Virus record (IMG/VR): IMGVR_UViG_2537562192_000019
Strand: one strand, 5' to 3'
DNA length: 31,970 bases
From: a virus
Lineage: Duplodnaviria > Heunggongvirae > Uroviricota > Caudoviricetes
Part shown: in pieces, positions 20,914 to 24,393 of the stretch
How the letters are laid out: every line of letters begins with the position of its first letter
Position numbering within the stretch: position 1 is the first letter of the stretch
Made by a program: the position numbers and the translations under genes
Notes under the pieces: generated by a model
What the model was told of the DNA's origin: nothing
Database searches by the model: none
What the model saw: only the letters and a program-made list of their open reading frames with translations

Positions 20914-23900
20914 ATGGGTAAAGGAAGCAGTAAGGGGCATACTCCGCGCGAAGCGAAGGACAACCTGAAGACCACGCAGTTGCTGAGTGTGATCGATGCC
21001 ATCAGCGAAGGGCCGATTGAAGGTCCGGTGGAGGGATTAAAAAGCGTGCTGCTGAACAGTACGCCGGTGCTGGACAGTGAGGGGAATACCAATATCTCCG
21101 GCGTCACGGTGGTGTTCCGGGCCGGTGAGCAGGAGCAGACTCCGCCGGAGGGATTTGAATCCTCCGGCTCCGAGACGGTGTTGGGTACGGAAGTGAAATA
21201 CGACACGCCGATCACCCGCGCCATCACGTCGGCAAACATCGACCGACTGCGCTTTACCTTCGGTGTGCAGGCACTGGTGGAAACCACCTCAAAGGGGGAC
21301 CGGAATCCGTCGGAAGTTCGCCTGCTGGTTCAGATACAGCGTAATGGTGGCTGGGTGACGGAAAAAGACATCACCATTAAGGGCAAAACCACCTCGCAGT
21401 ATCTGGCCTCGGTGGTGGTGGATAACCTGCCGCCGCGCCCGTTTAATATCCGGATGCGCAGAATGACGCCGGACAGTACCACAGACCAGCTGCAGAACAA
21501 AACGCTCTGGTCGTCATACACCGAAATCATCGATGTGAAACAGTGCTACCCGAACACGGCACTGGTCGGCGTACAGGTGGATTCGGAGCAGTTCGGCAGC
21601 CAGCAGGTGAGCCGTAATTATCATCTGCGCGGGCGTATTCTGCAGGTGCCGTCGAATTATAACCCGCAGACGCGGCAATACAGCGGTATCTGGGACGGAA
21701 CGTTTAAACCGGCATACAGCAACAACATGGCCTGGTGTCTGTGGGATATGCTGACCCACCCGCGCTACGGCATGGGGAAACGTCTTGGTGCGGCAGATGT
21801 GGATAAATGGGCGCTGTATGTCATCGGCCAGTACTGCGACCAGTCGGTGCCGGACGGCTTTGGCAGCACGGAGCCGCGCATCACCTGTAATGCCTGGCTG
21901 ACCACACAGCGCAAGGCGTGGGATGTGCTCAGTGATTTCTGCTCGGCGATGCGCTGTATGCCGGTATGGAACGGGCAGACGCTGACGTTCGTGCAGGACC
22001 GACCGTCGGATAAGGTGTGGACCTATAACCGCAGTAATGTGGTGATGCCGGATGATGGCGCGCCGTTCCGCTACAGCTTCAGCGCCCTGAAGGACCGCCA
22101 TAATGCCGTTGAGGTGAACTGGATTGACCCGGATAACGGCTGGGAGACGGCGACAGAGCTTGTGGAGGACACGCAGGCCATTGCCCGTTACGGTCGTAAT
22201 GTCACGAAGATGGATGCCTTTGGCTGTACCAGCCGGGGGCAGGCACACCGAGCCGGGCTGTGGCTGATTAAAACGGAGCTGCTGGAAACGCAGACCGTGG
22301 ATTTCAGCGTCGGCGCAGAAGGGCTTCGCCATGTACCGGGCGATGTTATTGAAATCTGTGATGATGACTATGCCGGTATCAGCACCGGTGGTCGTGTGCT
22401 GGCGGTGAACAGCCTGACCCGGACGCTGACGCTTGACCGTGAAATCACGCTGCCATCCTCCGGTACCACGCTGATAAGCCTGGTTGACGGAAGTGGCAAT
22501 CCGGTCAGCGTGGAGGTTCAGTCCGTCACCGACGGCGTGAAGGTGAAAGTGAGCCGTGTTCCTGACGGTGTTGCTGAATACAGCGTATGGGGGCTGAAGC
22601 TGCCGAGGCTGCGCCAGCGACTGTTCCGCTGCGTGAGTATCCGTGAGAACGACGACGGCACGTATGCCATCACCGCCGTGCAGCATGTGCCGGAAAAAGA
22701 GGTCATCGTGGATAACGGGGCGCACTTTGACGGCGAACAGAGTGGCACGGTGAACGGTGTCACGCCGCCAGCGGTGCAGCACCTGACCGCAGAAGTCACT
22801 GCAGACAGCGGGGAATACCAGGTGCTGGCCCGCTGGGACACGCCGAAGGTGGTGAAGGGCGTGAGCTTCCTGCTTCGCCTGACCGTGGCAGCGGATGACG
22901 GCAGTGAGCGGCTGGTCAGCACGGCCCGGACGACGGAAACCACTTACCGCTTCACACAACTGGCTCTGGGGAACTACAGGCTGACAGTCCGGGCGGTAAA
23001 TGCGTGGGGGCAGCAGGGCGATCCGGCGTCGGTATCGTTCCGGATTGCCGCACCGGCAGCGCCGTCGCGGATTGAGCTGACGCCGGGCTATTTTCAGATA
23101 ACCGCCACGCCGCATCTTGCGGTTTATGATCCGACGGTACAGTTTGAGTTCTGGTTCTCGGAAAAGCGGATTGCGGATATCAGGCAGGTTGAAACCACAG
23201 CACGCTATCTTGGCACGGCGCTGTACTGGATAGCCGCCAGTATCAATATCAGGCCGGGCCATAATTATTATTTTTACGTTCGCAGTGTGAACACCGTTGG
23301 CAAATCGGCATTCGTGGAGGCTGTTGGTCAGCCGAGTGATGACGCATCCGGCTATCTGGATTTTTTCAAAGGCGAGATAGGGAAAACCCATCTGGCTCAG
23401 GAGCTGTGGACGCAGATTGATAACGGTCAGCTTGCGCCTGACCTGGCTGAAATCAGGACATCCATTACGGATGTCAGCAATGAAATCACACAGACCGTCA
23501 ATAAGAAACTGGAAGACCAGAGTGCAGCGATCCAGCAGATACAGAAGGTTCAGGTTGATACAAATAATAATCTGAACAGCATGTGGGCTGTGAAGCTGCA
23601 GCAGATGCAGGACGGACGCCTTTATATTGCGGGTATCGGTGCCGGTATTGAGAACACCCCCGACGGCATGCAGAGTCAGGTACTGCTGGCGGCAGACAGG
23701 ATTGCGATGATTAATCCTGCAAATGGCAACACAAAACCGATGTTTGTTGGTCAGGGTGATCAGATATTCATGAATGAAGTGTTCCTGAAATATCTGACGG
23801 CTCCCACCATTACCAGCGGCGGTAATCCTCCTGCATTTTCCCTGACACCGGACGGAAAGCTGACCGCTAAAAATGCAGATATCAGTGGCAGTGTGAATGC

Positions 23901-24393
23901 GAACGCCGGGACGCTCAACAACGTTACGATAAATGAAAACTGTCAGATTAAAGGGAAACTGTCAGCCAACCAGATTGAAGGCGATATTGTCAAAACAGTG
24001 GGTAAGGCTTTCCCGCGGGACTCCCGGGCACCGGAGCGGTGGCCATCAGGGACCATTACCGTCAGGATTTATGACGATCAGCCGTTTGACCGGCAGATTG
24101 TTATTCCGGCGGTGGCATTCAGCGGTGCTAAACATGAGAGAGAGCATACTGATATTTACTCCTCATGCCGCCTGATAGTGAAGAAAAATGGTGCTGAAAT
24201 TTATAACCGTACCGCGCTGGATAATACGCTGATTTACAGTGGTGTTATTGATATGCCAGCTGGTCACGGCCACATGACGCTGGAGTTTTCGGTGTCAGCA
24301 TGGCTGGTAAATGACTGGCATCCCACAGCAAGTATCAGCGATTTGCTGGTTGTGGTGATGAAGAAAGCCACCGCAGGCATCAGTATCAGCTGA
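20914..24393 (+). CDS. J: Central tail fibre / host-specificity protein gpJ (1159 aa); N-terminal ~790 aa lambda-like, C-terminal ~370 aa diverged
   Basis: Begins [43 protein letters not shown]... and is lambda-J-like through the fibronectin-III region. From about residue 790 (about nt 23280) it differs from lambda J as I recall it, keeping only short conserved islands such as [36 protein letters not shown]. Confidence 0.93.

Follow-up and report, generated by a model that had tools for sequence, protein, structure and literature searches.

A mosaic gene J in an Escherichia coli lambdoid prophage carries a receptor-binding domain of the VT1-Sakai/gpJ-1A2 class

We analyzed gene J in a stretch of viral DNA of 31,970 nucleotides (hereafter, the window). 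The account that fits it best, and which we consider probable, is that of an ordinary recombinant lambdoid J allele composed of at least four sequence types and ending in a non-LamB, most likely OmpC-binding, domain. Homologous recombination at conserved junctions would have assembled these types. Residues 1-805, the hub and FNIII part, would be of lambda type, and residues 806-959, a longer helical shaft and fibre prism, of phage 21 type; a lambda-identical junction (960-1000) and a short A8-like patch (1001-1033) would follow, and the Ig-like domain (1029-1159) would come from a class that VT1-Sakai and PhiR55_1 share with numerous E. coli prophages, of O157 strains and others. Judging from the solved structures of lambda and A8 gpJ, the domain would be present in three copies at the fibre tip, with the bottom loops entering a porin trimer in the outer membrane, and this insertion may trigger tail opening.

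Gene J and its domain architecture

J (20914..24393; 1159 amino acids, intact) was defined from the open reading frame list and its translation; all features given with coordinates here lie on the plus strand. The translation contains every peptide quoted in the initial annotation, which concerned 23280-24393, that is, J residues 790-1159 and the stop codon. The gene closes the tail operon, with M-L-K-I preceding it and lom/stf/tfa following it, as seen from the reading frames and from the annotation of an identical prophage. Six Pfam families matched the protein, all above curated cut-offs and in the order of lambda-type tip proteins: a hub domain (Phage-tail_3), FNIII-A (FNIII-A_GpJ), two Ig/FNIII domains (Ig_J, Ig_J_second), the tail-tip fibre (Phage_Tail_Tip, PF09327) and a receptor-binding Ig domain (Ig_GpJ_C, PF12421). 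Overall, J was 83% identical to lambda J over 1159 columns (BLASTP, 1975 bits). Domain order, gene position and full-length homology thus identify its predicted product as a lambda-type tip attachment protein (central tail fibre).

Segments and breakpoints

The comparison with lambda used NC_001416 15505-18903, encoding a J of 1132 amino acids, and names of shaft, fibre and prism domains follow the lambda gpJ cryo-EM paper (PMC11101478). Residues 1-805 (20914..23328), comprising the hub domains and two FNIII/Ig domains with Pfam matches up to Ig_J_second at 716-818, showed 97.3% amino acid identity to lambda J. The initial annotation had described a retained lambda-type N-terminal part and a different C-terminus, which agrees with the 44-45% identity that we found over both 806-959 and 1006-1159. 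It had placed the departure from lambda near residue 790; the divergence is real, but the break lies at residue 805/806 (nucleotides ~23320-23330). At the DNA level this break is abrupt, with identity to lambda (93.8% over 23014-23320) dropping from 94% to 53%, far beyond chance. Identity to lambda J was 53% over residues 790-1159 and 51% over the last 350 residues (810-1159), rather than the more than 90% that would speak against a different C-terminus.

Residues 806-959 (23329..23790) form the upper beta-prism fibre and an alpha-helical shaft into which, compared with lambda, 27 residues are inserted. This segment was 44.8% identical to lambda J at the amino acid level; its nucleotide identity was 53% to lambda, 95% to phage 21 and 96% to PhiR55_1. 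Amino acid identity to phage 21 J was 97% over 806-871 and 98.9% over 872-959, and the shaft as a whole (806-~1000) was about 97-99% identical. Downstream, a conserved island at the lower end of the fibre prism (residues 960-1000; 23791..23913) returned to the lambda type, with 92.7% nucleotide identity to lambda vs 80.5% to phage 21 and, over residues 960-1005, 93.5% amino acid identity to lambda. Residues L961-N997 were identical to lambda and included the 36-residue sequence that had been cited earlier as an example of short conserved islands, an observation that therefore holds. The island coincides with the fusion point of engineered gpJ chimeras (window residue ~991).

Beyond it, residues 1006-1159 were 44.2% identical to lambda J. 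The short patch at 1001-1033 (23914..24010) represents a fourth sequence type, to which no compared phage showed more than 85% nucleotide identity; on alignment it matched, at the protein level, the A8 gpJ sequence in PDB 9wca. The receptor-binding domain (Ig_GpJ_C; residues 1029-1159; 23998..24390; PF12421, E=8e-37) occupies only the last ~131 residues, in agreement with the lambda gpJ cryo-EM map (PMC11101478), and not the last ~250 residues to which LamB binding had been attributed. Similarly, the proposal of a mosaic exchange of the receptor-binding module needs revision: mosaicism and retention of the tip/hub part are borne out, but more than a single module was exchanged, since the shaft is of phage 21 type and the domain is separate from it.

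Class and structure of the receptor-binding domain

Over residues 1029-1159, amino acid identity was 41% to lambda, 62% to phage 21, 98.5% to PhiR55_1 and 95.4% to VT1-Sakai. The domain differed from lambda in every loop aligned to the lambda host-range positions 1011/1012, 1049/1053 and 1104-1107 (PMC8890733), and with 41% identity and different loops it would not belong to the LamB-binding, lambda-type class. Against 1A2/VT1-Sakai, 6 of 131 residues differed (I1052V, R1076K, K1090R, D1134N, H1136Y and S1157T, window residue first) and no indels were present. The 1A2 sequence was taken from the Nature 2024 supplement, where it is labelled 'GpJ 1A2', as a machine-read PDF with errors. It was compared with the window through its translation and diagnostic codons, nucleotide identity being only 71.5% and the supplement text carrying OCR indels. 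Between residues 988 and 1159, 12 positions distinguish VT1-Sakai from the window, and the translation was of VT1-Sakai type at all of them. Judged by this identity, uninterrupted by indels, the window domain is assigned to the VT1-Sakai/gpJ-1A2 receptor-binding class.

Structure prediction, suggested in the initial annotation and run on residues 960-1159 (AF2), gave a confident beta domain, with pLDDT of 77-96 over the receptor-binding domain; residues 960-1024 were of low confidence, as expected for a monomer model of a trimeric fibre. The four best Foldseek matches were 9wca (A8 gpJ713 alone), 9wcb (A8 gpJ713 with EDL933 OmpC), 8xcj (lambda gpJ713 with LamB) and 8xck (lambda gpJ713 alone). 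Sequence matches to the solved gpJ713 structures had E values of 2e-142 for A8 and 4e-121 for lambda. The A8 complex 9wcb (9wca and 9wcb are described here from their PDB titles) is a direct demonstration of OmpC binding by an Ig_GpJ_C domain.

Likely receptor

Divergence from lambda had been taken to imply a receptor other than LamB. Phage 21 is a counterexample: its receptor-binding domain shares just 44% identity with that of lambda, yet its native receptor is LamB (PMC11336670), so divergence alone does not indicate a different receptor. The shaft is also uninformative, because it is nearly identical to that of phage 21, a LamB user; the exchanged shaft does not determine specificity. The conclusion of a non-LamB receptor is instead supported by homology to the OmpC-dependent 1A2 domain (~95% identity). 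Selection of the 1A2 chimera took place on a strain deleted for lamB, and its efficient delivery required the EDL933 OmpC variant (PMC11338833). Delivery into wild-type MG1655 was only 5% for 1A2 vs 98% for wild-type lambda (PMC11338833 source data), and 1A2 has been employed to target O157 strains (bioRxiv 10.1101/2025.02.28.640725). Because the same class of domain, grafted on lambda J (gpJ-1A2), delivers in an OmpC-dependent manner, we infer that the most likely porin is OmpC and not LamB, with an EDL933-like allele favoured over that of K-12.

Receptor use is labile in the Ig_GpJ_C family of J proteins, which counts against the OmpC assignment, as do the lambda-type shaft of the 1A2 chimera and the errors in its machine-read sequence. 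The receptor-binding domains of A8, which uses OmpC, and phage 21, which uses LamB, are 81% identical; phage 21 moves among LamB, OmpC and OmpF by single substitutions, one being sufficient for OmpC use (PMC11336670). In addition, of the six residues that differ from 1A2/VT1-Sakai, three (R1076K, D1134N and H1136Y) fall in loops aligned to lambda positions 1049-1053 and 1104-1107, where mutations alter receptor use (PMC8890733), and A8 and 1A2 already accept differing OmpC alleles (PMC11338833). A domain carrying R1076, D1134 and H1136 might accordingly differ from 1A2 in the porin or in the range of OmpC alleles that it binds, K-12 OmpC and OmpF being examples. Against this, the substitutions are conservative (R/K, D/N and H/Y), the viable phage PhiR55_1 has D1134 and R1076 like the window, and receptor data for the 1A2/VT1-Sakai class point to OmpC alone. 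As a full alternative to the recombinant, OmpC-binding allele, such a switch appears rather improbable. The related proposition that the R1076, D1134, H1136 variant recognises other OmpC alleles or another porin than the 1A2 domain is also unlikely, if marginally less so; if true, it would be a natural specificity variant useful to retarget lambda-based delivery particles.

Slightly less plausible again is a C-terminal domain that diverged in sequence but kept its receptor, as in phage 21, which has the window's shaft and still uses LamB with its own distant domain. The window domain is only 58-62% identical to that of phage 21, with indels in two loops (a 4-residue deletion and a 5-residue insertion), and is 95% identical to a class that works through OmpC in a lamB deletion background and gives no appreciable delivery into wild-type K-12 with LamB.

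FhuA-dependent lambdoid J proteins (phi80, HK022 and N15 type) have an unrelated C-terminal domain, usually with cor downstream of J. A J of this type was ruled out by the PF12421 C-terminus and by the location of lom 67 nt after J with no open reading frame between. Other phages considered as receptor proxies were set aside. Phi330, a long-tailed Stx2a phage with OmpC use shown by knockout and complementation (PMC12502783), has a domain only 56% identical to that of the window and belongs to another class, as does 434 (42%). Gifsy-1 J is OmpC-using but its C-terminus is unrelated, and a 2026 receptor-prediction preprint was uninformative, as it deals with Drexlerviridae GpJ and explicitly excludes the lambda C-terminal domain.

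Prophage context

The carrier is an E. coli prophage at the Qin/ydfJ site. Directly downstream of J, as in lambda, is lom (24461..25060), encoding an Ail/Lom outer-membrane protein (Pfam Ail_Lom, E=1e-122). An intact side tail fibre gene, stf (~987-989 amino acids), and the gene for the assembly protein Tfa follow at 25119..28663 (Pfam phage_tail_N, Phage_fiber_2, Collar and Caudo_TAP); the N-terminal 352 residues of Stf are 80% identical to lambda orf-401. Stf/Tfa constitute a second adsorption organ of the same tail. An inverted-repeat search for an invertible segment between stf/tfa and the pin recombinase gene gave only weak, chance-level pairs.

An IS3-family insertion sequence of 1259 nt (14572..15830), with HTH_Tnp_1 and rve domains in its reading frames, interrupts the tail-assembly gene T. 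It was identified through an uninterrupted prophage and annotated IS3-family copies. The prophage of strain 2012EL-2448 lacks the element and is otherwise 99.9% identical, the insertion point there lying within annotated T, and copies 99.9% identical to the element occur on plasmids, annotated as 'IS3 family transposase'. A repeat search at the element ends with default settings found no terminal repeats. The insertion must be recent, because the copy is 99.9% identical to other copies, and it probably leaves this prophage copy unable to build tails. It would be very improbable for J itself to be a decaying remnant with its C-terminus free of receptor selection: in spite of the element in T and of a site that is occupied by a defective prophage in K-12, the 1159 codons of J are intact and free of frameshifts, and the gene is found unchanged (100% identity) in several other genomes with uninterrupted T and is 96% identical in nucleotide sequence to J of the plaque-forming PhiR55_1, while the recency of the insertion and the 1A2 result argue in the same direction.

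Prevalence and significance

The J gene is 100% identical at the nucleotide level to genes annotated gpJ in several E. coli chromosomes, and 60 E. coli records contain it at 99% identity or more over its full length. Its receptor-binding class was found at 90% identity or more in about 3,170 records, and 3,393 of 5,426 complete E. coli genomes (more than half) gave a match; the LamB-type domain of lambda itself is the less common one. That lambdoid phages exchange the C-terminus of J in mosaic fashion is textbook knowledge, many E. coli genomes already have the same protein annotated, and the 1A2/VT1-Sakai class has already been exploited in engineered lambda particles. Thus, nothing here is new, and the finding carries little weight as a discovery. 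It is of practical use for annotation: the unit that determines the receptor comprises the last ~131 residues and not all of the lambda-divergent sequence, and the window allele could provisionally be labelled 'OmpC-type (1A2/VT1-Sakai class)'.

Comparison with known systems

The closest phage record is PhiR55_1 J (PV340571), which has 96.1% nucleotide identity along the full gene and lies in the same I-J-lom-stf arrangement. It differs from the window by 12 substitutions within residues 781-1159, including the 1011-1013 patch and H1136Y. A published receptor for PhiR55_1 was not found in the literature searched; PhiR55.1 has been reported to be independent of ManYZ (Nature 2026 SNIPE paper). 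Phage 21 J (OL657228) and many J genes of 'Lambda_ev'/mEp460 type are 94-95% identical to the window in nucleotide sequence over residues 1-~1033, including the longer shaft, and phage 21 departs from it in the receptor-binding domain.

The best-scoring solved structure for the window C-terminus is A8 gpJ (PDB 9wca, and 9wcb with EDL933 OmpC). The two proteins have the 1001-1028 patch and the fold in common; the A8 receptor-binding domain is 57% identical to that of the window and its loops are of phage 21 type. The gpJ-1A2 chimera (Brodel et al., Nature 2024, PMC11338833) has a C-terminus equivalent to that of J in VT1-Sakai and further O157 prophages and is ~93% identical to the window from the fusion point (~991-1159), with equal loop lengths. 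It differs from the window in the 1001-1033 patch and in its shaft, which is of lambda's shorter type; OmpC dependence was measured for the chimera and is predicted for the window. Finally, lambda gpJ (P03749; PDB 8IYK, 8XCK and 8XCJ) shares with the window J its gene position (I-J-lom-stf), Pfam order and the Ig-like fold of the receptor-binding domain, whereas its shaft is 45% identical and 27 residues shorter, and its receptor-binding domain, 41% identical to that of the window, binds LamB.

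A lambda-type J gene with a divergent 3′ third

J, the lambda-type tail-tip attachment protein (central tail fibre), is encoded at 20914-24393 on the plus strand (1159 aa). The finding lies in its 3′ third: 23280-24393 covers codons 790-1159 and the stop codon. A Pfam search identified six families, all above curated cut-offs: FNIII-A_GpJ (residues 86-207), Phage-tail_3 (330-498), Ig_J (610-714), Ig_J_second (716-818), Phage_Tail_Tip (872-1000) and Ig_GpJ_C, described as 'C-terminal receptor binding domain' (1029-1159). This order is that expected for lambda J, and J is followed, as in lambda, by lom, a full-length stf and tfa. 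An antisense ORF of 625 codons (21514-23391, minus strand) lies wholly within J; annotation over this ORF is absent in the identical RefSeq prophage, and it most likely reflects a reverse frame that is rich in GC and poor in stop codons, not a gene.

Alignment with lambda J (NC_001416) confirmed the C-terminal divergence reported in the initial annotation, although the break lies at 805/806 and not at residue 790 as proposed. Identity to lambda is 97.3% over residues 1-805, 44.8% over 806-959 (with a 27-residue insertion relative to lambda), 93.5% over 960-1005 and 44.2% over 1006-1159. At the nucleotide level the break is sharp, from 93.8% over 23014-23320 to 53% over 23321-23790. Every peptide that had been quoted was found in the translation, and the quoted conserved island matches the stretch L961-N997, which is the same as lambda throughout. 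Over the last 350 residues identity to lambda is 51%, clearly not above 90%.

Mosaic structure of the J 3′ end

The exchanged region had been described as a single receptor-binding module. Protein and DNA alignments with J of phage 21 (OL657228), PhiR55_1 (PV340571) and VT1-Sakai instead split the divergent part into several modules, with at least four segments in the J 3′ end. Residues 806-959 are of phage 21 type (95% nucleotide and 97-99% amino acid identity to phage 21; 96% nucleotide identity to PhiR55_1), whereas residues 960-1000 are of lambda type (92.7% nucleotide identity to lambda, 80.5% to phage 21). Residues 1001-1033 resembled none of the four compared phages, all at most 85% identical in nucleotides, and were matched at the protein level by A8 gpJ (PDB 9wca). 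The final segment, residues ~1033-1159, is of PhiR55_1/VT1-Sakai type, with nucleotide identities of 96.6% to PhiR55_1, 94.8% to VT1-Sakai, 55% to phage 21 and 53% to lambda.

[quoted passage not shown] By this map, breakpoint 805/806 is the end of the second FNIII/Ig domain and the start of the shaft. The last breakpoint matches the beginning of the Pfam receptor-binding domain (residue 1029) and also nt ~3100 of the gene, where the megablast match of dozens of phage 21, 'Lambda_ev' and mEp460-type J genes ends. Breakpoints thus fall where domains meet, implying recombination at domain boundaries.

Receptor assignment

From the divergence, a receptor other than LamB had been proposed; the direction of this reading stands, but the part of J that sets the receptor was given imprecisely. 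The longer shaft of the window J is also present in phage 21 J, and the native receptor of phage 21 is LamB (PMC11336670). Divergence over residues 806-~1000 is therefore uninformative, and receptor information is confined to residues 1029-1159. This domain is 41% identical to that of lambda, 42% to phage 434, 56-57% to the phi330 class, 57% to A8 and 58-62% to phage 21, and 95-98% to PhiR55_1, VT1-Sakai, JLK-2012, 'PPompW' prophages and many O157 Stx1a/Stx2a phages. Because the phage 21 domain is also just 44% identical to that of lambda, divergence from lambda alone is no evidence of a new receptor.

The useful evidence is functional: the domain class of the window was tested in gpJ-1A2, an engineered lambda J chimera. 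Brodel et al. took C-terminal portions of J from natural prophages, attached them to lambda J at its residue 964 and screened the chimeras on a lamB deletion strain (Nature 2024, PMC11338833); this fusion point corresponds to window residue ~991, within the conserved island. Efficient DNA delivery by 1A2 occurred only via the EDL933 OmpC variant (PMC11338833). On wild-type MG1655, delivery was ~5%, compared with ~98% for wild-type lambda (PMC11338833 source data), and therefore neither K-12 LamB nor K-12 OmpC is used by 1A2. The 1A2 DNA was taken from the supplement (header 'GpJ 1A2'), a machine-read text with indels; its translation and diagnostic codons were of VT1-Sakai type at 12/12 positions differing between the window and VT1-Sakai in residues 988-1159. 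Thus, the window domain differs from 1A2 at six positions (window to 1A2: I1052V, R1076K, K1090R, D1134N, H1136Y and S1157T), corresponding to 95.4% identity with no indels.

A PDB sequence search detected A8 gpJ713 (9wca/9wcb, E=2e-142) and lambda gpJ713 (8xcj/8xck, E=4e-121). An AlphaFold2 monomer model of residues 960-1159, built from 25 homologues, contained a confident all-beta domain at residues ~1025-1152 (pLDDT block means 77-96); its trimeric prism part was unreliable, as expected in a monomer model. The top four Foldseek matches were 9wca, 9wcb, 8xcj and 8xck. As 9wcb is titled 'open state of A8 gpJ 713 central tail fibre with OmpC from E. coli EDL933' and 8xcj is lambda gpJ713 with LamB, the window domain has the fold that, in solved complexes, binds LamB or OmpC trimers via bottom loops. 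By analogy we infer a two-step mechanism, in which a porin trimer would be docked by three copies of the domain, and domain spreading would then pass up prism and shaft, opening the tail tip (PMC11101478).

Taken as separate claims, the window J probably uses a receptor other than LamB, and OmpC is its likely receptor. Receptor choice is labile among these proteins: one substitution gives phage 21 OmpC use and a few more give OmpF use (PMC11336670), and the A8 (OmpC) and phage 21 (LamB) domains are 81% identical. The engineered OmpC-binding A8 domain (9wca sequence) has both loop indels of the LamB-binding phage 21 domain. In this protein family, LamB versus OmpC use is not predictable from sequence class alone. 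Three of the six differences from 1A2 (R1076K, D1134N and H1136Y), all conservative, occur in loops aligning with lambda 1049/1053 and 1104-1107, where substitutions create OmpF use in lambda (PMC8890733). R1076 and D1134 are common to the window and PhiR55_1, a plaque-forming phage. The window domain may nonetheless differ from 1A2 in the OmpC alleles that it accepts.

An insertion in gene T of the prophage copy

Relative to the prophage of E. coli 2012EL-2448, to which it is otherwise 99.9% identical, the window contains an extra 1259 nt (14572-15830). The ORFs of this insert have HTH_Tnp_1 and rve transposase domains (Pfam), and the insert shares 99.9% identity with elements that bear the annotation 'IS3 family transposase'. 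This IS3-family insertion sequence (~1258 bp) splits gene T, a tail-assembly gene, near codon 94. Lambda tail assembly requires the G-T frameshift product, so this copy, with J intact, is probably unable to make tails. In the tape-measure gene H (15980-18541), ~195 nt (16954-17148) had no megablast alignment to the 2012EL-2448 prophage, and the 1.1 kb at 15831-16954 is 95.6% identical, versus 99.4-99.9% elsewhere, which suggests a second patch of local mosaicism.

Prophage setting and prevalence

The window corresponds to a Qin-site lambdoid prophage, whose genes run in the order essD-rrrQ-rzpQ, cspI and gnsB, nohA, lambda-like head and tail genes, J, lom, stf, tfaQ, pinQ and truncated ydfJ. 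The 5′-truncated ydfJ (MFS transporter, 30687-31970) at the window end marks the prophage-chromosome junction. Between the lysis genes and nohA/terminase lies a low-GC block (~2000-4300; 36-37% versus 55-60% in structural genes), annotated in the identical prophage as cspI, ymcF/ynfQ, ynfR, ynfN, gnsB, ydfO and ynfO; it is the cold-shock/small-protein moron cluster typical of Qin. Downstream of J, stf (side tail fibre, ~987-989 aa) and then tfaQ occupy 25119-28663, and a gene for a pin-type recombinase follows on the other strand (28761-29351); no convincing inverted repeats of an invertible segment were detected between stf/tfaQ and this gene. The N-terminal 352 aa of Stf are 80% identical to lambda orf-401, and the gene is intact, whereas laboratory lambda carries a frameshifted stf.

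Several complete genomes, STEC strains among them, carry J at 100% identity, and 60 records have it at 99% or more. For the receptor-binding segment, ~3,170 records show 90% identity or more and 3,393 of the 5,426 complete genomes contain a match, and 90%-identity protein clusters of this domain class have thousands of members. Among the J tips of E. coli, this receptor-binding type is one of the most common, and the window J belongs to an already known, very common and functionally characterised class.
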